Source: Candidatus Woesearchaeota archaeon
Lineage (GTDB): Archaea > Nanobdellota > Nanobdellia > Woesearchaeales > UBA12501
Length of the DNA: 38,636 nucleotides
Assembly: GCA_014729495.1 (NCBI GenBank)
Contig: WJJV01000006.1
Span: 1-38,636, forward strand
Direction of reading: 5' to 3'
Under the pieces are notes generated by a model, which was not told the DNA's origin, searched no databases, and saw only the letters and a list, made by a program, of their open reading frames with translations. The first letter of the stretch is position 1, and each line of letters starts with the position of its first letter. Below, in pieces: positions 2,763 to 31,334 of this stretch. A program made the position numbers and the translations under genes.

Positions 2763-3632
2763 TCATGAAAACAGACCGATCAACCACGCCCAGAATCCTG
2801 AATTACCACCAGTGCCGCTTCCACCGCCAGTTGCCTGGCCTGTTATGCCACCCATTGGATCTGGGTTACCAGAATCTCCATTACTCTTATCACCTTTAGG
2901 CTCTTCAGGCTTTGGTTCTGGCTTAGGTATTTCACATGCTTCTGTCTCAGCAGCAGGCTTATGGCCTGTTGTTCCGCAATCATTTGCATCCTTGCATTCC
3001 TTTGTCTTCTCATTGTTAATGCATTCGCTCCAGGTGCATACCCAGTTCTCAACGCATTTGCATACCGAATCAACGCAATCCACACCCACAGGACAATCAG
3101 AGGATCCGTGACATTCAGGCAGGACCTCTGCATAGATATACCTGTTCTCTTCATCTCCATCTGATTCTGCATAAGCTCTTAGCTTGATATTTCCAAGTCT
3201 CGTATCCTCAGAGACAGACAATACAATTTCCACAGTCTGCTCTTCTCCCTCACTTAATTCAGATATCTCTTTCTCTGAGCACTGCCAGTTATCAGGACAG
3301 TCTGCTACTGTCACAAGAACATTCTCCTCATCATAGTCTCCATCATTCTCCACTATCAGTTCCAGTTTATTGTCCTGGTTCTTTCTGAGTGTATAATCAT
3401 AAACTCTGTGGATATTAAGGCTATGATCCTTACCACCACCTTCAATCCTTGGTGCAGGGTCAGGACAGACACATTTGCAGACCTCAGTTTCCTCATTGCA
3501 TTCACAATCACACCCATCATCACAGCATTCTCCAAAGCACCAGTTAGACATTTCTGCATGACATGATTCATCAACCGCCAAAGCTGATGGAATAGCCATA
3601 ATCAATACCAGAATAATCATGATTCTTTTCAT
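2763..3632 (-). CDS. secreted cysteine-rich protein with a Gly-rich linker and C-terminal hydrophobic anchor
   Basis: The ATG at 3632 gives MKRIMIILVLIMAIPSALA, a signal peptide. There are dense Cys clusters (CFGECCDDGCDCECNEETEVCKCVCP; CPVGVDCVDSVCKCVENWVCTWSEC). The C-terminus is PKPEPKPEEP...GGGSGTGGNSGFWAWLIGLFS. Confidence 0.6.
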   Translation of the reverse strand: MKRIMIILVLIMAIPSALAVDESCHAEMSNWCFGECCDDGCDCECNEETEVCKCVCPDPAPRIEGGGKDHSLNIHRVYDYTLRKNQDNKLELIVENDGDYDEENVLVTVADCPDNWQCSEKEISELSEGEEQTVEIVLSVSEDTRLGNIKLRAYAESDGDEENRYIYAEVLPECHGSSDCPVGVDCVDSVCKCVENWVCTWSECINNEKTKECKDANDCGTTGHKPAAETEACEIPKPEPKPEEPKGDKSNGDSGNPDPMGGITGQATGGGSGTGGNSGFWAWLIGLFS

Positions 3633-3733
3633 ATTGACACCCCCAATATATGGGCTATAGAGCAACCAATAATATAAAAAGTTAACTGTGTTAAACAGTT
3701 TTATAAGCTATTTTAAGGTATTTAAAGGATATA

Positions 3734-3741
3734 TTTATATA
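3734..3741 (+). promoter_or_regulatory. TATA box for the tRNA at 3766
   Basis: tttatata lies 25-32 nt upstream of the tRNA 5' end, which is typical archaeal spacing. Confidence 0.4.
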
Positions 3742-3765: not shown

Positions 3766-3893
3766 GCCGGGGTGGCGCAATCTGGTACCGCGCAAGCCTG
3801 GAATCTTGCAAAGACAGCTTGTTTCCTTCGGGATACCTTATGGCTGGAAAAGGCCAGAGGCCCGTAATCTGGGTTCAAATCCCAGCCCCGGCG
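3766..3893 (+). tRNA. intron-containing tRNA, provisionally class II tRNA-Ser(GGA)
   Basis: The acceptor stem is perfect (gccgggg/ccccggc) with discriminator g, and the T-arm is ctggg-ttcaaat-cccag. One intron, 3835-3866, is supported by a strict BHB: H cggg 3829-32 / cccg 3861-64, inner helix cctt/gagg, and 3-nt bulges. Its removal leaves a 15-nt variable arm (tcc-ttcg-gga). The candidate anticodon arm is caagc-ctggaa..-gcttg, with ~12 extra nt that lack a convincing BHB, so the anticodon call is tentative. Confidence 0.65.
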
Positions 3894-4433: not shown

Positions 4434-4464
4434 CTTAATGATCAATCATTTTCACAATCACAAT

Positions 4465-4548
4465 GCCCCGTTAGTGTAGCAACCGGAGCGTGTTACGCGA
4501 CCCTCGGACGCAACATGCGACTCCTAGTTGCTATGCAACCGGAGTCCC
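4465..4548 (+). pseudogene. tRNA-Glu 5' fragment (first 16 nt plus leader duplicated) fused to an unrelated structured ~68-nt segment
   Basis: A 29-nt perfect direct repeat, tcacaatcacaatgccccgttagtgtagc, occurs at 4452-4480 and 4565-4593. The upstream copy lacks an anticodon arm, T-arm and 3' acceptor. It is followed by a 7-bp stem tagcaac/gttgcta enclosing small hairpins, and by a 10-nt direct repeat gcaaccggag (4479-88 and 4535-44). Confidence 0.4.
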
Positions 4549-4577
4549 ATAAAAAAATCAGATATCACAATCACAAT

Positions 4578-4700
4578 GCCCCGTTAGTGTAGCCCGGCCA
4601 ATCATTTCGCCCTCTCGAACTGAGAGGTAGAGTCAGGCGAAGACCCGGGTTCAAACTGGTATAAGGTTATTCCTTTGCCATGAATGTCCCGGACGGGGCG
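4578..4700 (+). tRNA. tRNA-Glu(CTC) with two introns (anticodon 37/38: 4618-4634; T-loop 59/60: 4656-4686)
   Basis: Acceptor gccccgt/acggggc, D-arm gtgtagcccggccaatcat (Glu-type), anticodon stem tcgcc/ggcga, loop ctctcg|..|a. BHB 1 is ctct/agag. BHB 2 is ttca (4650-53) / tgaa (4681-84) with 3-nt bulges, which restores the T-loop ttcaaat. The mature length is 75 nt. Confidence 0.85.
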
Positions 4701-4925: not shown

Positions 4926-5187
4926 GAATAATAAAAATTTGACCATTATCTTATAAGCAAATCCTAACCCCACCCTAAAGGGTGTGGTATTAACGGATTT
5001 GCATTTTACATGGTCAAATTTTTAGTCTTGAACATGGCACCTCTCGCACTAAAGTGTATGGTATTACTTGCGAACTTGTTCGCAAGTCTGATAATTCCGA
5101 CTTCAGTCGAAATTATCTATAAGCCTGAGAGTCGGGATTATCTTTAAACCCAATGAAAATAGCTTGGTGCCATTTTCAATAAATATT
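4926..5187. repeat. hairpin-cassette repeat, copy 2 (short form)
   Basis: A direct-orientation copy of 2383-2745. It lacks the 111-bp internal module but has an extra palindrome, gataattccgac-ttca-gtcgaaattatc. Loop-only differences occur (cttgcgaac-tt-gttcgcaag versus -aa-). Confidence 0.8.
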
Positions 5188-5921: not shown

Positions 5922-6073
5922 CAGTATTCAAGAAATGCCCGCACTGCGGGTCAACAAACATGAAGCATGTCCACAGGTCCAGCGGAGGATTCTGGGAGTG
6001 CATGGACTGCGGGTATAAGGGAAGCCATACCCATGAGGAAGAGAAGGAGACAAATCCAGAGATATCATGGTGA
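5918..6073 (+). CDS. zinc-ribbon protein (51 aa; below the ORF-track length cutoff)
   Basis: My manual translation is MTVFKKCPHCGSTNMKHVHRSSGGFWECMDCGYKGSHTHEEEKETNPEISW, with CPHC...CMDC as four Zn ligands. It is translationally coupled on both sides (ATGA at 5918; ATGGTGA at 6067). Confidence 0.5.
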   Translation: MTVFKKCPHCGSTNMKHVHRSSGGFWECMDCGYKGSHTHEEEKETNPEISW

Positions 6074-6333
6074 AACACATGGATGAATATGATCTTGAGC
6101 TGGACAGGGCATTGTCTGAGATAAAGAAGCAGAATGCAAAGAAGGTCTGCATCCAGCTGCCTGACGGGCTGAAGCCAAAGGCAAAACAGATAGCAGATTA
6201 CCTAAATGAAAACACAAAAGCAGAGATAATCATATGGCTGGGAACATGCTTCGGAGCCTGCGACATACCCAACCTTGGAAGCATCAGTCCTGATCTTCTC
6301 ATACAATGGGGGCACTCAGCATGGAATTCCTGA
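6067..6333 (+). pseudogene. dph2: N-terminal fragment (~88 aa) of diphthamide synthesis protein Dph2
   Basis: YDLELDRALSEIKKQNAKKVCIQLPDGLKPKAKQIADYL...GTCFGACDIP...DLLIQWGHS matches the start of archaeal Dph2 (~330 aa), including the first cluster-binding Cys. The frame stops after 88 codons, and the downstream DNA encodes an unrelated membrane protein. Confidence 0.55.
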
Positions 6334-6803
6334 TTTATTTCCTCACAGCAGTGCTTGCATATATCGGCCTGGCAGGAGGGTTTGCTCTTGCTCAGATATC
6401 TCCAGAGGAGATGAAGCCTGGAAGGAAGTATTTTGATGCTCTTAATTACATCCTTTTCTCTCTCATAATGCTGATGCTGCTTTTCTTTGAGAGCCCCACA
6501 ATAGGCATAACAGTACTGCTGGCAATAAGCATATACATAAAGTTCGGCAGGCAGAAAGCGACACTGAAGATAGCTTATGGAGTCCTGGGAGCAGTGCTTG
6601 CTCTCCTGACATTTGACAAGTACATATTCATGATAACAGCATCACTCATATTCATGTTTGGCATTGTATCAGGAACATTATGCTCAATAAGGCACAGCCA
6701 GATGTCAAGGAAGCAGCAATTCCTTTACATTATGGGATCAAATGCCCTGTTCTTTCTGACAGCACTACCACTTTACTTTCTTGAGCTTAAGGTAATACCC
6801 TAG
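6306..6803 (+). CDS. integral membrane protein (165 aa, ~5 TM)
   Basis: A hydrophobic ORF that overlaps the end of the Dph2 fragment in another frame. No family recognised. Confidence 0.5.
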   Translation: MGALSMEFLIYFLTAVLAYIGLAGGFALAQISPEEMKPGRKYFDALNYILFSLIMLMLLFFESPTIGITVLLAISIYIKFGRQKATLKIAYGVLGAVLALLTFDKYIFMITASLIFMFGIVSGTLCSIRHSQMSRKQQFLYIMGSNALFFLTALPLYFLELKVIP

Positions 6804-10537: not shown

Positions 10538-10640
10538 TAAAGGCAAAATCCCGATGAGCTTGCGAGTCGGGATTATGCCTTTTTACATGCTTGATAATCC
10601 CAGACAAGCTTGCGAGTCGGGATTATCTTTGCATTTGAAT
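10538..10640. repeat. hairpin-cassette family, two gataatccc...gggattatc-type palindromes
   Basis: ggcaaaatcccga-tgagcttgcga-gtcgggattatgcc and gataatccc-agacaagcttgcgagtc-gggattatc are the same module as at 2685-2715 and 5125-5145. They lie directly 3' of tRNA-Ile. Confidence 0.7.
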
Positions 10641-13287: not shown

Positions 13288-13971
13288 ATGAACAAGGAAA
13301 TGCAGAGATTCTTGGCAGCAATCAAGAAGGAAAAGGACAGGCATATAATGATGGTCCTTTCTGAAGCAGAGAAAGATGAATCAGGAGCACTTAGATTCAG
13401 CACTGCGATACCCCTATCAGGAAAGCTCAAATCCTACAAGAGGACTTCAGATGGAGGGATGCTTTCAGTCAAGCCGGATTATGGACCGCCTTTTGCACAT
13501 GGGACTCCTGCCTATGCATTCAAGACAAATAATATCGCGAGCATATTGTATGATCCTGTTGACACAGGAGATGAAGATGCGCTCAAAAGGTTTCTTGATG
13601 AAATATTCATAGATAGTGACAGGGAAAGATATTCTATAATGATGCACTCCATGTATATTGAGGGAAAACCAGAGAAAAAGAATGGAAGCATGCTCAGGCT
13701 CTCGAACGCAGTGCTTGTTGACTATTCTGAGATAGAAGAGGAATGCATGATGTGCGATGAAGACTGCACTGGAGAGTGCGATCTTCAGCCAGAAATGATG
13801 CTTTCAAGGCAGGCAATAGTCAGTCTGCCTCTTGTAGTGAATGACACTGCTGCAGAAATGAAATACTCTGATATCGCCAAAGCACTTCTTCCATATGAAA
13901 GAGCTGAGTGTATGATCAGAGAGCTGAAATTAGAGAAAACAAGCCATCTTAAGCTGGTTCCTGATCAATGA
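13288..13971 (+). CDS. hypothetical protein (227 aa) with a CMMCDEDCTGEC cysteine cluster
   Basis: The ATG at 13288 lies ~25 nt downstream of aaatttatatatt (a leaderless-type arrangement). Alternative starts are the ATG at 13249 and the GTG at 13240. Confidence 0.5.
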   Translation: MNKEMQRFLAAIKKEKDRHIMMVLSEAEKDESGALRFSTAIPLSGKLKSYKRTSDGGMLSVKPDYGPPFAHGTPAYAFKTNNIASILYDPVDTGDEDALKRFLDEIFIDSDRERYSIMMHSMYIEGKPEKKNGSMLRLSNAVLVDYSEIEEECMMCDEDCTGECDLQPEMMLSRQAIVSLPLVVNDTAAEMKYSDIAKALLPYERAECMIRELKLEKTSHLKLVPDQ

Positions 13972-14905: not shown

Positions 14906-14953
14906 ATCCGATTTCTTTTTAAACAGAGAATTATTACTTATGCGCAATAACCT

Positions 14954-15025
14954 GCCCCTTTAGTATAATGGATAGTACACCTGGTTGCGGTCCAGGAGAT
15001 CGGGGTTCAATCCCTCGGAGGGGCG
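14954..15025 (+). tRNA. tRNA-Arg(GCG), intron-less
   Basis: Cloverleaf: gcccctt/gaggggc, D gtat/gtac, anticodon arm cctgg-ttgcggt-ccagg, T-arm cgggg-ttcaatc-cctcg, discriminator g. Confidence 0.85.
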
Positions 15026-15118
15026 TTATTTTAGTTGATTGTTACAGGTTTATTCTTATTTCGTGGGGCCGAGCAAAGCGAGCGCCCCACATGACTGCTT
15101 CCGAGGGTAGCAACGCTC

Positions 15119-15141
15119 GTTCAATCCCTCGGAGGGGCGTT
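15119..15141 (+). repeat. 23-nt direct duplicate of the tRNA-Arg 3' end (att-like)
   Basis: gttcaatccctcggaggggcgtt at 15005-15027 is repeated exactly at 15119-15141. The copy has no matching T-stem 5' strand, so it is not a second tRNA. Confidence 0.7.
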
Positions 15142-15192
15142 GAGTTTGTTTTATAGTATTTTATATATCTTAAATGAGTTATGAGAATTAAT

Positions 15193-15480
15193 CCTTGCCT
15201 CTCAGGCAAGCGCTGCAAATCCGACCGCGGAGAGGTGGCGCAGGATATTAGTTTATTTTCTCGCAACTTTTTCCTAGCCTCGCCAAAAAGACTCTGCTAA
15301 TCTGATATTGGCGAGGTGGCAAATGCTTTTAGTCTATTTTCTTGCAAATTAATCCTAGCCTCTCCGATAAGATGCTGCTAATGCTATGTTGGCGAGGTGG
15401 CGAAAGTTTTAGGGAATTGTCTTAAGGTTTCTTCCTAGCCTCGCTGACAAGCGCTGCAAATCTGACCACAGCGAGGTGGC
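15193..15480 (+). repeat. periodic hairpin array A (4 units, starts 15193/15273/15354/15434)
   Basis: Units of 47-48 nt follow the form cctagcctc[gc/tc]c...gctgc.aat...g[gc/ga]gaggtggc at an 80-81 bp period. Each of units 2-4 is followed ~8 nt later by TTTTAG. Unit 4 is the exact reverse complement of unit 1 of array B. Confidence 0.85.
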
Positions 15481-15489
15481 GCATTCTTT

Positions 15490-15885
15490 TAGCTTTAGCC
15501 AGGCAGCAAAAGTTGAGGCAGCAACATAACTTTTTTGAGGCAACAACAAGGGATGAATACTGAGTGTAGATGAAAAATCCGCTACGCAAGTCCTGATTTT
15601 TCCTTTACGAATAAGGCAGACCTGAAGGGGCAGACCGTGTACGAATCCAATGTTGTTGCTGCTGCCGTAAAGATAGAAAATTTCCTTCTTGACAGTGTAC
15701 GAATCCAATGTTGTTGTTACAAATGCGAAGCTTTTGTAACTAAGAAAATGCAAAGCATTTTCTGTTGCTGCCCTATAACCCCTAAGTTATTCTTGACAGT
15801 GTATTAATCCATTATTGTTGCTGGCGACATAAATAGAATATTGCCTTATCTATCGTTGTTCTTACAAATGCAAAGCATTTGAAGT
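15490..15885. repeat. inner repeat block A (GCAACAAC-linked hairpins), inverted homolog of 23150-23540
   Basis: gtgtacgaatccaatgttgttgc is repeated three times, alongside the palindromes gaaaatgc-aa-gcattttc and gttacaaatgc-gaa-gcttttgtaac. The reverse complement aligns with 23200-23370. Confidence 0.75.
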
Positions 15886-15990
15886 GACACGTGAGCTAAG
15901 AGGGGCTTCACTTTGCTCAGCCCTCGGCTGATATCAGTTATTCAGAGGGCTTTTGACTGAAATGATATAAGCCTTATTACAACCTCAAAC

Positions 15991-15998
15991 TTTATATA
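15991..15998 (+). promoter_or_regulatory. TATA box of the DNA ligase gene
   Basis: tttatata lies 23-30 nt upstream of the ATG at 16021, implying a leaderless or very short-leader mRNA. Confidence 0.45.
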
Positions 15999-16020
15999 TC
16001 AAGATTAATGGACATATGCT

Positions 16021-18810
16021 ATGGAATACTCAGAGCTTGCAAAAGTCTATGAACAGCTTGAGTCAACCACAAAAAGGCTTGAGAAAACATGGATAATATC
16101 AGGATTTCTGAAGAAAGCTGTTAAGAGCAGCTCAGGCACTGACAAGAATGAGATTTACATGTTGAGCATGCTGCTGCAGGGAAGGGTTTTTCCCCCATGG
16201 GATGAGCGCAGGCTTGGTGTTGCTGCAAGGATGATAATCAAGGCAGTGAGCGTTGCCACTGGAGCAGATGCTTCTGGAATAGAATCAGAATGGAAGGACA
16301 TAGGAGATATAGGAAAGGTTGCAGAGAAACTAGTCAGCTCCAAAAGGCAGACCACACTTTTCTCCCAGGCGCTCAGTGTTGAGAAGGTATTCAGCAATCT
16401 TCAGAAGCTGCCATCTCTTGAAGGCCAGGGCTCTGTTGACCAGAAGATACAGCTGATAGCAGAGCTTCTTACAAGTGCTGAACCTATTGAAGCAAGGTAT
16501 ATTGTGCGTACAGTCCTTGAGGATCTCAGGGTTGGGGTTGCTGACGGCACACTGAGGGATGCGATTGTCTGGGCTTTCTTCAGCGACAGCATCAGCATAA
16601 ACTATGATGAGGAAAAGAAGACAATCAACCCTGATGACAGGGAGGAATACAACAAGTATGTGGATGCTGTGCAGTCTGCTTATGATGTCTGCAATGACTT
16701 CTCAAGAGTCATAGAATCAGCAAGGTCTGGAGGGCTTGAGGCTATCAGGAAGATAGGCCTTGATGTGGGAAAGCCAATAAAAGTCATGCTCTACCAGAAG
16801 GCCACAGGAATAGAGAATGCATTTGAGAGAGTGGGAAAGCCTGCTGCATTCGAGTACAAATACGATGGATTCCGATGCATTACAGGACATACTCCAATAT
16901 ATGTCTACAAAAAAGGATTGATATCTGTTAAAGACGTCAAAAAAGAGGATCTTGTTTTGTCTCATAAGGGATATTTCAGGAGAGTTGAAGCAGTAAATAA
17001 AAGAAGAATAGACAAAAAAGAAAGATTATTTAAGATTCAATCTTTCCTTGGGAATCAATTTAGGATATCAGAGGGCCATAAGATTCTTGTAGAAAGGCAC
17101 GGAAAGGTTAGGTGGGTTAACTCTGAGAGTCTTACCAGAACTGATCATGTTGTATTTCCAATACCAAGATTCAGGATCAAAGACCAGCCTGCTGAGAAAG
17201 AGCTTGTTCTCAAGAATGCTTCCAATTATTCAAAATCAATCAAGATTTCCAATGACTTCTTTAGGTTCCTGGGATACTGGATTGGCGATGGGTTCACAAA
17301 TGACTACCACAATACAGAAAGAGTTGGTTTAGTCTTCAATAAGAACGATAAGAATAAGATCAATAAGTATTCCAATATAATCCAAAGAGATATCAAGATA
17401 GACAGGATAACCCAAAGCAGACAGAGAGGCATGATATCCCTTTATTGGAGGGATAAACCTTTAAGAATATGGCTTTCCACTAATTTCCGGAGGGAATGGA
17501 AAGGTAAAATGATTCCAGATTGGTTTTATAATATCTCCAAATCCCAGTTTCTGGCCTTTCTTGAGGGGTGGACTGAATCTGATGGCCATACAGATTCAGC
17601 CGGAAGAACTTCAATAACAACTAAAGAGAGAGATCTTGCAATGTTTGCTCAACTGATCGGGTTGAAGCAGGGTATCATAATTGCACTAAAAAAAATAAGG
17701 ATTTATGGAAAGACATACTATAAGCTGATTATTTTAAAGTCAGAGAAGCATTATAAACTCAGAAGCGATTATCTAGCTGTTAAAATATTAAAATATGAAG
17801 AAATCAAGTATCCTGATCCAAGGACAATGCTTTATAATATCCAGGTTAAAGGTGATAAGAGTTACTGTACAACTCTTCTTTCTCTTCATAACTGCCAGAT
17901 ACACAAAAACAACCCTGAAATAAAGATTTACACAAGAAGGCTGGAGGATGTGACAAAGCAGTTTCCTGAAGTAAAGAAGTATGTTGAGGAGAATATAAAA
18001 GGAGAGGGATTCATCCTGGACTCAGAGGCTGTGGGTTATGATCCCAAGACAGGAGAGTATCTTCCTTTCCAGAGCATAAGCCAGAGGATAAAGAGAAAGC
18101 ATAACATAGATGAGATGGCAGGAAAGTACCCTGTTGAGCTAAACATATTTGATGTTGTCAGCTATGAAGGAAAGAACATGATGAAAGAACCTTTCAGGAA
18201 GAGAAGAGAGCTTATAGAGAGCATAGTGACAGAAGAGCCTAAAAAGATTGTGCTGGCAAAGCAGATAATAACAGACGACCCTGAAGAGGCAGAGAGGTTC
18301 TATAAGGAAAGCCTGAACGCCGGAGAGGAAGGAGTCATGGCAAAGAATCTTGATGGAGCCTACAAGCCAGGAAGCAGGGTGGGCTTTGGTGTCAAGATAA
18401 AGCCGGTCATGGAGACCCTTGACCTGACTATTGTAGGAGCAGAATGGGGAACTGGCAAGAGAAGCGGATGGCTGAGCTCATTTGTCCTGGCATGCAGGGA
18501 TGACTCAGGAGAGTTCTTTGAGATAGGCAAGGTAGGCACAGGCATAAAGGAGCTTGAAGGAACAGGAGTGACATTTGATTACCTCACTGAACTGCTCAAG
18601 CCATTGGTAATTGATGAGAAAGGCAGGCAGGTAAGGATAAAACCTTCTGTTGTTGTTGAGATAAACTATGAGGAGATCCAGAAATCACCTACATACTCAT
18701 CAGGATTTGCGCTGAGATTCCCCAGGCTGATAAAGCTCAGGGAAGACAGAGGGCCTGAGGATGTGTCATCAATCTCTTTCATTGAAGAGCTGTATTATGG
18801 CCAGAAATGA
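16021..18810 (+). CDS. lig: ATP-dependent DNA ligase (archaeal Lig1 type) containing a 339-aa intein
   Basis: The N-terminal DNA-binding domain is followed by motif I, split as FEYKYDGFR | intein | CQIHK. Downstream are FILDSEAV, EGVMAK, the OB-fold and LRFPRLIKLREDR. The extein length of 590 aa is typical. Confidence 0.9.
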   Translation: MEYSELAKVYEQLESTTKRLEKTWIISGFLKKAVKSSSGTDKNEIYMLSMLLQGRVFPPWDERRLGVAARMIIKAVSVATGADASGIESEWKDIGDIGKVAEKLVSSKRQTTLFSQALSVEKVFSNLQKLPSLEGQGSVDQKIQLIAELLTSAEPIEARYIVRTVLEDLRVGVADGTLRDAIVWAFFSDSISINYDEEKKTINPDDREEYNKYVDAVQSAYDVCNDFSRVIESARSGGLEAIRKIGLDVGKPIKVMLYQKATGIENAFERVGKPAAFEYKYDGFRCITGHTPIYVYKKGLISVKDVKKEDLVLSHKGYFRRVEAVNKRRIDKKERLFKIQSFLGNQFRISEGHKILVERHGKVRWVNSESLTRTDHVVFPIPRFRIKDQPAEKELVLKNASNYSKSIKISNDFFRFLGYWIGDGFTNDYHNTERVGLVFNKNDKNKINKYSNIIQRDIKIDRITQSRQRGMISLYWRDKPLRIWLSTNFRREWKGKMIPDWFYNISKSQFLAFLEGWTESDGHTDSAGRTSITTKERDLAMFAQLIGLKQGIIIALKKIRIYGKTYYKLIILKSEKHYKLRSDYLAVKILKYEEIKYPDPRTMLYNIQVKGDKSYCTTLLSLHNCQIHKNNPEIKIYTRRLEDVTKQFPEVKKYVEENIKGEGFILDSEAVGYDPKTGEYLPFQSISQRIKRKHNIDEMAGKYPVELNIFDVVSYEGKNMMKEPFRKRRELIESIVTEEPKKIVLAKQIITDDPEEAERFYKESLNAGEEGVMAKNLDGAYKPGSRVGFGVKIKPVMETLDLTIVGAEWGTGKRSGWLSSFVLACRDDSGEFFEIGKVGTGIKELEGTGVTFDYLTELLKPLVIDEKGRQVRIKPSVVVEINYEEIQKSPTYSSGFALRFPRLIKLREDRGPEDVSSISFIEELYYGQK
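16876..17892 (+). mobile_element. intein with a LAGLIDADG homing-endonuclease domain in ligase motif I
   Basis: It begins with Cys (CITGHTP) and ends with LSLHN, followed by the +1 Cys of CQIHK. Internal motifs are FLGYWIGDGF and FLEGWTESDGH. The composition is AT-rich relative to the exteins. Confidence 0.85.
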
Positions 18811-18895: not shown

Positions 18896-19426
18896 CTAAT
18901 CATAGGAAGGCCTTGCAATGTAGTTCTTTGAGTCCTCTCCAAGCAATGCGTCATTCTCAAGCCCATCCCTCAGTGTTGCCTTTATGGCATTGGGCTCGTG
19001 CAGGGATGATACTTTAAGGTTGATATCCTCTGTCTTGATCATCTTGTATCCTGCAGGAAGCTCATCATACTCAAACCTCTTGATGTTCGCATCGCTTGCT
19101 CCGCCAACATAAGCTATCACTACAGGCTTGACAGGATCGTCACCAAAGTTCCTCATGTCAAATGTCATTGACTTTACAATGCCCTCATCATCTGGATCAA
19201 TCCTGTACCTCAGAGTTATAGGATTGCCAAGGTCAGAAGGAAGTATCTCATAAGTGTCTGCAGGGAGTTCAGGCTCATCTTCCTCAACATCCGGCTCTGG
19301 TGAGACATCTACCTCAGTATCAGGTGCAGGTGAGCTTACTTCTGGAACAGGCTCCTCACTCTGACTGCATGCAGCTGTAAGAAATAGAATTGCAAGAACA
19401 ACTGTAAATATTGCTATTTTTCTCAT
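18896..19426 (-). CDS. secreted lipoprotein-like protein (176 aa)
   Basis: MRKIAIFTVVLAILFLTAAC is a signal peptide with a lipobox-like LTAAC, followed by an acidic Pro/Glu linker. The track start at 19429 is TTG; an ATG lies at 19426. Confidence 0.55.
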   Translation of the reverse strand: MRKIAIFTVVLAILFLTAACSQSEEPVPEVSSPAPDTEVDVSPEPDVEEDEPELPADTYEILPSDLGNPITLRYRIDPDDEGIVKSMTFDMRNFGDDPVKPVVIAYVGGASDANIKRFEYDELPAGYKMIKTEDINLKVSSLHEPNAIKATLRDGLENDALLGEDSKNYIARPSYD

Positions 19427-19544
19427 CAAATCACCCCAATCTCAGCTTTTATTGATATAATCTGCTTATGGATATGCTGAATACCTCATATTTATAAATG
19501 TATTCATCAAAAACTATTTAAATGAGAGTTCATAATTATATATC

Positions 19545-23149: not shown

Positions 23150-23540
23150 TATACATCAGCAATAACAATGGAAGTCAAGATATATTTATTATTATGGCAA
23201 CAACAACATCGGATAATGTAATATTCTATCTATGTTGGCAGCAGCAACAACTTTGGATTCGTACACGGTCAAATGATAATATTTTAAGTTAATAACGGCA
23301 ACAACAGAAAATGCTTTGCATTTTCTTAGTTGCAAAAGCTCTGCATTTGCAACAACAATATTGCCAGCAGACGGCCATGCTCACTTTGTTCGCATGTCCT
23401 ACTCGGCACCCCGGAGGGGAAACAGGAAATCAAAGATTTCCTTAGTTGCGCTCGCTTCGCTCGGCAACCATCCCCCGCCTCGTCTGCGGCATTGTTGTTG
23501 CCTGGAATATCCTTCTGCTGCCTGACTAAATCCAAAAGAA
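23150..23540. repeat. inner repeat block B, inverted homolog of 15490-15885
   Basis: It shares ggcagcagcaacaac.ttggattcgtacacggtc and gcaacagaaaatgctttgcattttcttagtt.caaaagc...gcatttg.aacaacaa with the reverse complement of block A. Confidence 0.75.
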
Positions 23541-23543
23541 AAC

Positions 23544-23995
23544 GCCACCTCGCTGTGGTCAGATTTGCAGCGCTTGTCAGCGAGGCTAGGAGTATGTTGC
23601 AATTGAATAAACTAAAAGGAATAGCCACCTCTCCGTGGTCGGGTTCTTTGCGCTTATCGGAGAGGCTAGGAGTTTAAATGTTCTGAAAAATCACTTAAAG
23701 CCATTGCCACCTCGCCAACATAGCATTAGCAGCATCTTATTGGCAAGGCTAGGAGAAGAGTACAATACAATCTTCTTAAAGACATTGCCACCTCTCCGAC
23801 ATAGGGATAGCAGCAACTTATCGGAGAGGCTAGGGAAAGAGTGCAATGCAATCCCAAAAAATCCATTGCCACCTCTCCGACATCAGGATAGCAGCATCTT
23901 ATCGGAGAGGCTAGGAATACTAAAGATAAACTTTCCATATAGACTTTAGCCACCTCTCCGTGGCCGGATTTGCAGTGCTTGTCAGCGAGGCTAGG
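23544..23995 (-). repeat. periodic hairpin array B (6 units, starts 23544/23624/23706/23787/23868/23949)
   Basis: 47-48-nt hairpins of the form gccacctc[gc/tc]c...gcagc...g[gc/ga]gaggctagg at an 80-82 bp period. They lie directly 3' of the minus-strand island (stop at 24072). The inter-hairpin segments are also homologous to each other. Confidence 0.85.
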
Positions 23996-24071: not shown

Positions 24072-25169
24072 TCAGCTGCATCCCACATCCATCTCTTCGT
24101 TTTCTGCATAAGGATAGATTATATTTGCATGGAACTCATCCACTCTGAACGGAAATGGATCTGCCTCTTCAGGATCATCTGATATGCCAGTGTAATTGTA
24201 CAGGTTTCCTCCAGACTCCTTGTTGGATCGCCTGCACATGCCAGGGAACAATGGATCAAACTCATCTGCAAAGTACTGATAGTCTGCATAGCTCTTGTCC
24301 AGGTAAGGGTCTATACCCAGCTCTGTCTGCAAAGTGTCCAGCATCTCCTTTGACACAAGGGACTCTATGCCGCAGCAGGCTGAAGGGCTCAGGTTGCCTT
24401 CAAACCGCATAAGGAAGCTTGGAGCTGACTTGTTCTGGTATATGTAAAGGCCATTGTCTATGACTGTCTGCATGCCTGTCAGGCCTTGATCCTCAAGATC
24501 TATTCCTGACCTGTTTATATGCCTGACAACAATCCTGTTGGTCGCTATGGATATAAGAGGATCCTCAACACCATCCAGCTTAAGGATAGTGCTGACCTGC
24601 ACCTGAGGCCTCACTATTGACATAACTCCAGGGCTGGTGAGATTGTATCCCATTATCATGCTCACATTCACTGTCCATGCTCCTGGCTGGTAGATCCTGA
24701 TTGAAGTAAGATTGTATCTTATGATTATGTTCATCTGCTCTTGGGATATGTTAGTGAGGTTATCAAGCCATGTTGAGATATTGAGGCCTTCCATGCCTGG
24801 AAGACCCACATCCACTCCAAGATTATTTCTTATTGTTCCGTTCATTATTGACTGCTCAAGCACAGCAGTTATATTCTCTATGCGAAAATCAACACCCTCA
24901 TCAACTTTCTTTGATACAACAAACTCTGTTATGCTGTCAAATGACTTATGGGTGAGAGCGAACAAGGCTCTTGGGACATAGACCTTCTCAAAGTTCTCTG
25001 CAAAGTTATTGACAGCTGTCACCCTTACCTGAGCTCTTTCTGCGCGCTCCCTGAATGACAGAAAGTCCTGTGACGAGAAGTACATCATGAAAAGAGAGCC
25101 TATGAGCACAGCTGAGAGGGTGAAGAATATGGCCTTTTTCCTGAGCTCTGCCCTGCTGTTCACTGCCAT
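24072..25169 (-). CDS. pilin-like extracellular protein (365 aa) with a class-III-type N-terminus
   Basis: ELRKKA-IFFTLSAVLIGSLFMMYF is a basic residue plus small residue followed by a hydrophobic helix. There are at least 10 N-x-S/T sequons. The start overlaps the upstream gene end by 10 nt. Confidence 0.55.
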   Translation of the reverse strand: MAVNSRAELRKKAIFFTLSAVLIGSLFMMYFSSQDFLSFRERAERAQVRVTAVNNFAENFEKVYVPRALFALTHKSFDSITEFVVSKKVDEGVDFRIENITAVLEQSIMNGTIRNNLGVDVGLPGMEGLNISTWLDNLTNISQEQMNIIIRYNLTSIRIYQPGAWTVNVSMIMGYNLTSPGVMSIVRPQVQVSTILKLDGVEDPLISIATNRIVVRHINRSGIDLEDQGLTGMQTVIDNGLYIYQNKSAPSFLMRFEGNLSPSACCGIESLVSKEMLDTLQTELGIDPYLDKSYADYQYFADEFDPLFPGMCRRSNKESGGNLYNYTGISDDPEEADPFPFRVDEFHANIIYPYAENEEMDVGCS

Positions 25170-30393: not shown

Positions 30394-30810
30394 TCAAGTA
30401 TTGATCTCTCTGGGAAGAACGCTCTTGACAAACTCAAGAGCTGACTTTGTCTTCTCTTCAGAAACCTCTTCTGCTCCATATACAGCTAAATTTCTCAGTT
30501 TCCTCAGTTCATCAAAATTATCCAGCATCCCAGAATCCATTTCAGAATAATTCTCTTTCAGATAAGCTATCAGGACTTCATGCGAGTAAGGCTTGTACCC
30601 ATCTGCGCAAAGAACTGCCTGCGCTGCTTCCCTCAGGCTTTCATAGACATCCTCAAATATGAATCCCGAATTATCATCTGAGAGGGTCTGTGATTCAATA
30701 TATTTCAGCCTATCCTCTGCCTTTTTCATAAGCGAAGCTGCCATCTCATTGTCTGGCTGCTGTTTCACTGCTTTTTTCTCTTTCATGTAAAACTCAAAGC
30801 TTCTTATCAT
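30394..30810 (-). CDS. HEPN-domain protein (toxin partner of MNT)
   Basis: A ~138-aa helical protein with ...LREAAQAVLCADGYKPYSHEVLIAYL... and ELRKLRNLAVYG (the R-x-x-R-N-x-x-x-Y region typical of PF05168-type HEPN). It overlaps the upstream nucleotidyltransferase gene by 4 nt. Confidence 0.65.
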   Translation of the reverse strand: MIRSFEFYMKEKKAVKQQPDNEMAASLMKKAEDRLKYIESQTLSDDNSGFIFEDVYESLREAAQAVLCADGYKPYSHEVLIAYLKENYSEMDSGMLDNFDELRKLRNLAVYGAEEVSEEKTKSALEFVKSVLPREINT

Positions 30811-31334
30811 TTTATCAGTCTCAAAAAACCATGGAGCGTGATTCCATTCGCAAGATTGTTCCTGAACTCCTTGCTGGCTTTGTCAAGCTTTATCTTATGG
30901 ATGTTTATCCTCCTTTTCAGGCTTTTCTCGTATTTTGCTGTGTTGATGTCTTTTTTCTTGTCTGTTATGACTGCAATGTCAATGTCTGATCTGCCTGTGT
31001 CCTCTCCTCTTGCATAGCTGCCGAAAAGCACTACTGCTTCTGGCAGGTACTTCTCTGCAATCTCCCTGATCACTCCGCAGCTTGATATGCTGTAGATGTT
31101 TGATGCTCTTTTCAGGGCAACAAACTCTTTGTTGTCAGTATTTGCCAGGTAGTTGTCTGTCACCCTGGTCTTTTCCTTTGAAACAAGGTCCTGTTTCACA
31201 AGCTTCCTCAGGATCTTCAGGACTCCTGCAGGCGACAGGCCTGTGAGCCTTGCTATCTCCCTCAGGTGGAAGCTTGTGTCTGGATTCTGCAGGAACATAT
31301 CCATGACCCTGTCTGTGTTTGTTTTTGTGAACAT
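30807..31334 (-). CDS. wHTH-fused minimal nucleotidyltransferase (MNT antitoxin-type)
   Basis: The N-terminal HLREIARLTGLSPAGVLKILRKLVKQDLV is a wHTH. VVLFGSYARGEDTGRSDIDIAVI matches the GS-x10-D-x-D NTase motif. Confidence 0.75.
   Translation of the reverse strand: MFTKTNTDRVMDMFLQNPDTSFHLREIARLTGLSPAGVLKILRKLVKQDLVSKEKTRVTDNYLANTDNKEFVALKRASNIYSISSCGVIREIAEKYLPEAVVLFGSYARGEDTGRSDIDIAVITDKKKDINTAKYEKSLKRRINIHKIKLDKASKEFRNNLANGITLHGFLRLIK

Follow-up and report, generated by a model that had tools for sequence, protein, structure and literature searches.

Two inverted arrays of a co-varying hairpin repeat, a possible multi-hairpin non-coding RNA locus, on a Woesearchaeota-like archaeal contig

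We analysed the whole of the archaeal contig WJJV01000006.1, a window of 38,636 bp, and all absences reported below at the level of the genome refer to these 38.6 kb. The contig carries two arrays of one hairpin repeat, four units in array 1 and six in array 2, which face each other across a segment with the DNA ligase and ftsZ genes. The stems of the units differ by compensatory changes, their wobble pairs are distributed asymmetrically between the strands, and a promoter-like element precedes array 1. We tentatively favour, at somewhat less than an even chance, the explanation that inward transcription of both arrays yields a multi-hairpin non-coding RNA, whose hairpins would be bound or processed through the foot of the stem and the 5' half of the loop. 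The transcription of the arrays, and any function that they may have, we infer from the sequence.

The two arrays and their repeat unit

A preliminary description of array 2 had placed unit starts at 23544, 23624, 23706, 23787, 23868 and 23949 with periods of 80-82 bp. Both were reproduced (the periods are 80, 82, 81, 81 and 81 bp), and TRF run on the window also gave a period of 81 (score 295). That description did not include the second, inverted array of four units, nor the inverted non-coding blocks of about 1 kb that surround both arrays.

23544..23995, - strand (proposed RNA strand, CCUAGCCUC...GAGGUGGC): array 2, six hairpin units of 47-48 nt
Units of array 2: U1 23544-23590, U2 23624-23670, U3 23706-23753, U4 23787-23834, U5 23868-23915, U6 23949-23995
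15193..15480, + strand (proposed RNA strand): array 1, four units of the same family as array 2, in inverted orientation
Units of array 1: V4 15193-15239, V3 15273-15320, V2 15354-15401, V1 15434-15480

On the + strand of array 2, each unit reads GCCACC, an arm, a loop of 21-23 nt, the complementary arm and CTAGG, with GCCACC and GGCTAGG as the foot sequences. On the proposed RNA strand, the foot of the stem-loop is a nearly invariant 5'-CCUAG...UGGC-3', the stem has 9-12 bp whose inner pairs co-vary, and the 5' half of the loop is conserved (A-AAG-N-YGCUGC). This is the overall layout that had been proposed, but there are three arm types instead of the two first recognised (TCGCTG/CAGCGA, TCTCCG/CGGAGA and TCGCCAA/TTGGCGA), and the loop of U2 lacks the GCAGC that had been ascribed to every unit. 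Both arms match in four of the six units of array 2, and one unit there is chimeric, as previously noted; it is U6. With V2 and V4 of array 1, it combines 5' and 3' arms of different types, as expected from recombination inside the loop. The units of array 2 are separated by A/T-rich, fast-evolving linkers of 33-35 nt. Linkers are homologous to one another (consensus ..CTTTTAG..ATT..TTGCA..) and two of them are about 70% identical, in agreement with the earlier view of the entire 81-bp unit as a diverged tandem repeat.

The strict unit pattern is matched five times in the window, where 100 shuffles give an expectation of 0.00; two of the five matches lie on the opposite strand (15273-15320 and 15354-15401). 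With a covariance model made from the full set of ten, the units score 63-72 bits (E about 1e-21 to 1e-24), and the model detects no other copy anywhere in the window. Conservation was measured on the alignment of the ten units of both arrays, with the following mean pairwise identities.

Foot (CCTA...TGGC): 97%
Stem: 80%
5' half of the loop: 71%
3' half of the loop: 60%
Linker: 43%
Whole hairpin: 77%, with a minimum of 65%

When the stem is taken as 12 pairs across the ten units, 93.5% of the cells pair; sliding the partners by 1-3 columns lowers this to 42-57%. Double-sided changes occur at three stem pairs, in columns 10/40 (UA 4, GC 3), 12/38 (CG 6, UA 1) and 13/37 (GC 6, AU 2), and it is these compensated changes that set arm types A, B and C apart. 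The covariation score was matched by 2 of 500 shuffles. Apart from wobbles and a loop-proximal A·A, uncompensated mismatches of the stem are confined to the chimeric units. Because the units are paralogues that arose by duplication, the covariation amounts to about 3-4 independent compensatory events; it lends modest support to selection on a folded structure and is suggestive, not conclusive. The preliminary description had argued for selection on either a folded minus-strand RNA or a cruciform. The folded structure stands, with this modest support, and the minus-strand RNA gains from the G·U bias and the TATA box presented below. The cruciform does not fare as well: extrusion requires a short central spacer, and it is unlikely here because arms of 8-12 bp stand 21-23 nt apart.

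The strand asymmetry comes from the stem cells. When read on the CCUAGCCUC...GAGGUGGC strand they comprise 99 Watson-Crick pairs, 13 G·U, 0 A·C and 8 others. This strand, CCUAG...GGUGGC, is the - strand for array 2 and the + strand for array 1. The mismatch of U3, already described as a wobble on the minus strand, is indeed C·A on the + strand and U·G on the - strand. Since ten of the 13 G·U cells are one invariant pair, the independent evidence on the strand is 3-4 to 0. Folding of the single units gave z-scores <= -2.6 on the CCUAG...GGUGGC strand in six of the ten.

Array 1 is preceded by a perfect archaeal TATA box. On this contig, promoters take the form of a TTTAWAWA box located 30-33 nt ahead of leaderless start codons or tRNA 5' ends, and the very 8-mer found at array 1 recurs at this distance ahead of five bona fide 5' ends. 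There is no start codon or start of an open reading frame (ORF) at the predicted transcription start of array 1. Each linker has a T-run (CTTTTAG or CTTTAAG) 6-12 nt past its hairpin, and a longer run follows the last unit of array 1, where it may act as terminator.

15160..15167, + strand: perfect archaeal TATA box TTTATATA, 33 nt before V4, the first unit of array 1
15531..15536, + strand: T6 run, candidate archaeal terminator of array 1, 51 nt past the last unit

Distances from TATA box to 5' end:
tRNA at 3766: 32 nt
orf13288: 30 nt
PHP gene: 32 nt
Ligase gene: 30 nt
Minimal nucleotidyltransferase (MNT) gene: 31 nt
First unit of array 1, V4: 33 nt

These elements suggest a possible mode of action. 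Each array would be transcribed inward, from the - strand in array 2 and from the + strand in array 1, the latter using its own TATA promoter so that transcription would begin at the first unit. The hairpins could be reiterated modules that a trans-acting factor binds or processes, recognising the invariant foot together with the 5' half of the loop, and the outcome could be a protein sponge or scaffold, or else a precursor cut into hairpin RNAs of ~50 nt. The number of units would shift by unequal recombination within the loops, yielding chimeras such as U6, V2 and V4. We also considered that the arrays are an undescribed archaeal locus for ~50-nt hairpin non-coding RNAs, acting as a lineage-specific sponge, scaffold or precursor, in which the foot (CCUAG/UGGC, a single 3-nt bulge beside a 4-bp helix) would be read or cut by a host factor. 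The factor could be the broad-specificity splicing endonuclease of DPANN archaea or an RNA-binding protein. In this detailed form the proposal seems rather unlikely to us.

Non-coding blocks, gene neighbourhood and other elements

The host appears to be a Woesearchaeota-like (DPANN) archaeon. The contig has archaeal gene content, with a CDP-archaeol synthase, an ATP-dependent DNA ligase with an intein, FtsZ, diphthine synthase and intron-bearing tRNA genes, and the closest homologues of the diphthine synthase (dph5) are in metagenome-assembled genomes of Woesearchaeota/Nanoarchaeota, at <=73% amino-acid identity. Each array lies in a lineage-specific, gene-free block, and the two blocks are diverged inverted copies with the same order of modules; their identity ranges from unrecognisable to 70-93% in patches, and reaches 100% between the innermost units U1 and V1.

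15027..16020, unstranded: block 1, gene-free, 994 bp, between tRNA-Arg and the ligase start codon
23087..24071, unstranded: block 2, gene-free, 985 bp, between the convergent dph5 and 365-aa genes
23307..23353, unstranded: inner hairpin module, common to both blocks (15716-15762 in block 1), 91% identity
23349..23501, + strand: "RNA-X," a structured element with a closing helix of 11 bp (GCAACAACAAU/AUUGUUGUUGC)
16021-18810 and 18896-19429: the ligase-geneX pair, in the orientation opposite to that of the three relatives covering it

The 8 kb separating the blocks hold the ligase gene, a lipoprotein-like gene ("geneX"), a nitroreductase gene, a small ORF, ftsZ and dph5. Array 2 had been said to begin about 75 nt after the stop codon of the last gene of an island. 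The distance is correct on the - strand, with the stop codon of the 365-aa gene at 24072-24074 and the end of U6 at 23995; the island is not, and the genes between the arrays form a conserved housekeeping cluster. We compared the region with five syntenic relatives (L014, L015, L018, L019 and L021). In all five, dph5 directly adjoins a gene of 360-390 aa (from an 8-nt overlap to a gap of 60 nt), and block 2 is absent from this junction. Because dph5 abuts the 360-390-aa gene in these relatives, block 2 is a lineage-specific insertion. Three of the relatives, L014, L015 and L021, cover the ligase-geneX region, and in each of them the pair has the opposite orientation. A duplicative inversion by transposition was rejected, as it is only this pair, and not the whole segment between the blocks, that is inverted. 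The ligase itself (16021-18810) has an intein with a LAGLIDADG domain and is 929 aa long, against 585 aa in the relatives.

From its outer to its inner side, block 1 contains the TATA box, array 1, the T-runs, the GGCARCAACA/TGTTGTTGC repeats, two short hairpins (15716-15740 and 15744-15762) and the ligase promoter, with its TATA box at 15991. In block 2 the inner hairpin module consists of GAAAATGC-TTT-GCATTTTC (23307-23325) and GTTGCAAA-N9-TTTGCAAC (23329-23353); the second hairpin is GTTACAAA/TTTGTAAC in block 1, a compensatory change from G-C to A-T relative to block 2. RNA-X has relatives outside the contig. Its 58-nt core (23362-23419) is 90% identical to DNA upstream of geneX in L014, where coding DNA is about 75% identical, and this copy occupies positions 1-105 at the very end of the L014 contig. 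Two more copies, convergent, are found in L021, at 3532-3646 (+) and 3645-3741 (-). The element measures about 105-150 nt, with an insertion of 52 nt in the copy of the window. Its core comprises GACGG, a hairpin with the loop CUCACUUCGUUCG and then CUACUCGSCACCCCGNAGGGGG...CCCCCGSCUCG. The closing helices differ in sequence among the three genomes, and one internal hairpin co-varies. RNA-X has no match in Rfam, and neither its core pattern nor that of the inner module occurs in IMG/VR. Both modules, the inner hairpin and RNA-X, behave like RNA structure, which supports the transcription of the arrays that we propose.

Other repeats lie within or close to the blocks. The inner half of each block (15633-15830 and 23193-23360) has 4-5 direct copies of GGCARCAACA/TGTTGTTGC, ~45-60 nt apart, those of block 1 belonging to a longer repeat, GACAGTGTACGAATCCAATGTTGTTGC. 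Next to the array, one or more copies run in the opposite sense, making several mutually exclusive long helices possible. Next to block 1, the last 23 nt of tRNA-Arg(GCG) (14953-15026) are repeated exactly 92 nt downstream (15119-15141). L021 shares this repeat of the tRNA-Arg 3' end (3274-3346 and about 3468-3489), which in both genomes is 22-23 nt long and about 90-120 nt downstream; L015 has a DUF3800 gene at the position. The copy looks like the remnant of an att site, and not like half of a split tRNA, because the T-stem cannot form. Taken together, the inner hairpins, RNA-X and the tRNA-Arg repeat show the DNA downstream of tRNA-Arg to be a long-standing site of small structured elements that was expanded and duplicated in this lineage.

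Further structured elements are scattered over the contig. A foldback of ~100 nt (AAAAATTTGACCAT...ATGGTCAAATTTTT), which resembles a miniature inverted-repeat transposable element (MITE), has two copies that are 98% identical (2392-2496 and 4928-5032). An intergenic element with multiple hairpins also has two, 84% identical (2601-2738 and 5028-5183). Of its hairpins, one, GATAATCCC-N16-GGGATTATC, has three copies in the window (one of them at 10592-10630) and a fourth in L015 (1619-1661); they are 91-95% identical, above the level of coding DNA. There is also a tRNA-like gene at 4565-4700, with an apparent intron in the T-loop region (about 4575-4700) and an exact 29-nt duplicate of its upstream region and 5' end ~110 nt earlier (4452-4480); it is called neither by ARAGORN nor by the Rfam tRNA model.

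Proteins were annotated with Pfam, NCBIfam and PADLOC, which jointly covered every ORF of at least 80 aa, no single ORF being compared with all three. These searches revealed no cas, Nop, reverse transcriptase, transposase or integrase genes on the contig, and it has no Orc1/Cdc6, ParA/ParB or SegAB-like genes. A 227-aa ORF between the helicase and PHP genes (13288-13971), with its own perfect TATA box (13258), has no match in Pfam, NCBIfam or PADLOC; at its position relatives have merely 43 nt, or an ORF of 67 aa. At 6067-6803, two ORFs of 88 and 165 aa overlap in different frames; the shorter one encodes a Dph2-like (diphthamide-synthesis) N-terminus, and the arrangement may represent a frameshift or a split gene. 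Finally, a toxin-antitoxin-like pair of HEPN and MNT genes (30394-31334) is set amid giant surface-protein genes of 1566, 1034 and 869 aa, with RCC1, DUF4215 and Laminin_G_3 domains.

Weighing the possible explanations

Several observations speak against the transcription of the arrays into a multi-hairpin RNA. No partner protein gene particular to the contig could be linked to them. The folds of the whole arrays (z = -1.45 and -1.99) show neither a clear gain in stability over shuffles nor a clear strand preference, and we consider them uninformative because the arms of separate units can cross-pair. Transcription of array 2 is doubtful: its best TATA match, 7/8, is found 66 nt upstream of U6, there are two T5 runs between the 365-aa gene and U6, and the matches in array 2 and in the internal linkers reach only 5-7 of 8. 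Selection on each unit cannot be strict, with three of the ten (the chimeric U6, V2 and V4) having weakened stems. Since all ten units are paralogues on one contig, their covariation could reflect the history of duplication or template-switch mutation. To this must be added that searches of GTDB genomes, JGI metagenomes, IMG/VR, phages and plasmids turned up no homologous array.

These searches took several forms. The exact-pattern scan for units (GCCACCTCKCYN{22,30}GMRAGGCTAGG) gave five matches in GTDB (185,579 representative genomes) and eight in the JGI metagenomes, all of them single, chance-like and in GC-rich or coding DNA, and none in IMG/VR. A looser pattern, restricted to the unit ends, had 38 single matches in IMG/VR; the covariance model gives these 16-23 bits, where real units reach 63-72. 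Block 2 had no blastn match in phage and plasmid collections. A six-frame composite "protein" of both arrays, aimed at arrays mis-called elsewhere as ORFs, had no homologue at E <= 10 among 5.8 billion proteins. At the syntenic loci of the relatives the covariance model found no unit and TRF no non-coding arrays. Rfam was searched with the window and with the blocks: only three tRNAs pass the gathering threshold in the window, no family fits the repeat, and there is nothing credible in either block at E <= 10.

Alternatively, the blocks could be selfish or neutral structured DNA repeats, modular and non-autonomous, comparable to BOX or REP/BIME/REPIN, an explanation that we hold to be the main rival, possible and, on balance, doubtful. 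The hairpin would then matter as single-stranded DNA (e.g., for an HUH/Y1 transposase acting in trans) or be kept palindromic by intra-strand template switching, and the arrays would have no function for the cell. This would agree with the insertion of block 2, missing from five syntenic relatives, and with the opposed copies of four and six units and the chimeras, which point to duplication and unequal recombination. It would also agree with the other short hairpin or foldback families of the contig (2392-2496/4928-5032, 2601-2738/5028-5183 and GATAATCCC...GGGATTATC), with the location of block 1 beside a tRNA-Arg whose 3' end is duplicated in att-like fashion, and with the conserved CTAG directly 5' of the stem, reminiscent of the GTAG foot of REP. 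Yet, a selfish repeat leaves unexplained both the 13:0 asymmetry of the G·U pairs and the well-placed TATA box. Furthermore, there are no single or dispersed copies in the other intergenic regions of the contig, no evident terminal inverted repeats or target-site duplications at the block ends, no transposase or integrase on the contig, and no copy in the public collections scanned. A different view, which we consider unlikely, is that the arrays act as double-stranded DNA, as directional binding sites for a protein that would read the invariant half-sites GCCACCTC and GAGGCTAGG, about three helical turns apart. In that case the facing arrays could serve in partition, as a centromere-like site, or could block transcription or replication in a polar manner around the ligase-ftsZ segment. 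The nearly invariant ends and variable interior of the units, their strict phasing at 80-82 bp and the bracketing of 8 kb by opposed arrays would suit this role, as would the position of block 2 at a convergence of gene orientation and at the peak of the cumulative GC skew. However, the reading of outer half-sites does not account for the compensatory changes of the inner stem, the relatives do without the block at the same junction, and the contig lacks Orc1/Cdc6, ParA/ParB and SegAB-like genes. The turn in GC skew simply follows the gene strand, and a minimum just 12 kb away would, on equal reasoning, imply an origin, which makes the skew uninformative here. A replication origin (no Orc1/Cdc6 gene, and block 2 at converging, not diverging, genes) and a replication terminus deduced from the GC skew (which tracks the gene strand) were both considered and discarded.

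It is very improbable that the arrays are a degenerate or orphan array of guide RNAs (CRISPR, TIGR or similar), or a decoy of such repeats. The regular alternation of a hairpin-forming repeat of ~47 nt with a segment of ~33 nt, and the A/T-rich, promoter-bearing leader of array 1, are what one would expect of such an array; the mutual homology of the "spacers" and the repeats that are 77% identical are not, and there is no Cas, Nop-domain (Tas) or other effector gene on the contig, nor a match to CRISPR-DR or other Rfam families even at E <= 10. Scarcely credible, finally, is a coding role, in which the repeat would specify a protein of 27-residue repeats (81 bp being 27 codons) or small peptides preceded by a Shine-Dalgarno sequence. 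ORFs of 100-115 aa do run through the arrays on both strands, the 3' arm holds a Shine-Dalgarno-like GAGGTG, and GAGGTGGCAATG follows U3, U4 and U5, with the variant GAGGTGGCAAATG at V3. Still, the periods of 80 and 82 bp shift the frame, the open frames and strands differ between units, an ATG follows just four of the ten units and the resulting peptides are not conserved. Conservation follows the stem-loop and not the codons, and the six-frame query was without homologue.

The transcription into a multi-hairpin RNA that we favour and the selfish repeat would have different consequences. DPANN genomes are tiny and gene-dense, which makes two gene-free blocks of 1 kb with structured, co-varying modules conspicuous. 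Should the arrays be transcribed, they would count among the first small-RNA loci in tandem reiteration to be described from the DPANN superphylum, and could provide a handle on RNA-based regulation or processing in organisms not yet grown alone. If they are selfish repeats, they would document a lifestyle like that of REP/BOX repeats in DPANN, and the inverted pair could drive the inversion of the segment with ftsZ and the DNA ligase gene. Either way, gene callers will place spurious ORFs of 100-115 aa in these arrays.

Comparison with known systems

The preliminary description had set the array apart from CRISPR, and we concur. The likeness is in a hairpin-capable repeat that alternates with a segment of ~33 nt, and in an A/T-rich upstream region. 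Here, however, the repeats have diverged (77% identity, minimum 65%) and the "spacers" are homologous, sharing CTTTTAG...ATT...TTGCA; no Cas family was found among the contig ORFs with Pfam, NCBIfam and PADLOC, and there was no CRISPR-DR match at E <= 10. TIGR-Tas arrays have two independent variable spacers per repeat unit, whereas the variable positions of our units are co-varying stem pairs and part of the loop, with only three arm types; no contig ORF matches the Nop domain. A retron would come with a reverse transcriptase gene, and none is on the contig. Archaeal box C/D small RNAs have C (RUGAUGA) and D (CUGA) boxes with a K-turn, and H/ACA small RNAs an ACA box with a pseudouridylation pocket; the units fit neither class. 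They have no conserved C box, and CUGA is present in some of them only; in the Rfam scans at E <= 10, matches to snoRNAs were at chance level and outside the register of the units. Box C/D small RNAs were rejected (only matches with E > 0.6, and the wrong spacing of boxes). We also rejected a K-turn at the foot or in the loop, where GA/AG pairs are absent, and a tRNA-like fold of the + strand, which neither ARAGORN nor the tRNA covariance model matches.

Type III toxin-antitoxin RNAs (ToxI, CptI and TenpI) have units of 34-45 nt, with no linker, directly before the gene of the toxin endoribonuclease on the same strand. They resemble our arrays as tandem, short, structured RNA repeats that would be processed to unit length, but what lies downstream here is non-coding DNA and, beyond it, the ligase gene for array 1 or the convergent end of dph5 for array 2, and the contig has no gene for such a toxin. 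Integron attC sites share imperfect hairpins with a conserved foot, a covarying stem, a variable centre and a single orientation, and clusters of attC without integrase (CALINs) have been reported also in DPANN archaea. Our arrays differ from them in having no GTTRRRY/RYYYAAC core sites, no cassette ORFs (at a spacing of 33 nt) and no intI on the contig. A MITE or foldback transposon would have terminal inverted repeats flanked by target-site duplications, and empty sites in relatives. Empty sites for block 2 exist in five relatives; the ends of the blocks show no clear terminal inverted repeats or target-site duplications, the sole candidate for the former being an inverted match of 23 nt at 83% identity (23128-23150/23923-23945).

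Two kinds of systems come closer. Pneumococcal BOX elements have the structure boxA-boxB(n)-boxC, with boxB amplified in tandem, and REP/BIME/REPIN clusters are found in proteobacteria. The blocks are similarly gene-free, modular intergenic elements in which one hairpin sub-module is tandemly amplified to a variable copy number; the imperfect palindrome has a tetranucleotide at its foot (CTAG here, GTAG in REP), and the genome has other small foldbacks. Yet BOX and REP are dispersed in tens to hundreds of copies, REPs being arranged as inverted pairs in genomes that encode a RAYT, whereas here there are two loci in 38.6 kb, with ten units strictly head-to-tail and a loop of 21-23 nt, and the contig has no RAYT (Y1 transposase) or other transposase. 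The other system is NsiR1 of Anabaena, with about 12 direct repeats that each carry a promoter, a 60-nt hairpin RNA and a terminator; Listeria LhrC1-5 is a similar cluster of multicopy small RNAs. Our arrays share with the NsiR1 type the head-to-tail units of ~80-100 bp, the conserved stem-loop with a U/T-run, the less conserved linkers, the intergenic, non-coding location and a promoter element at the start of the array, which in array 1 is the TATA box 33 nt before the first unit. They differ in the archaeal host, the two inverted arrays and the lack of sequence similarity; and a strong TATA box precedes only the first unit of array 1, the internal linkers having weak TATA-like motifs, CTTTTAG or CTTTAAG. 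The sequence of the unit is, as far as our searches go, unlike anything found, its architecture resembles tandem arrays of small-RNA genes or BOX/REP-type repeats, and the paired inverted layout is unusual.

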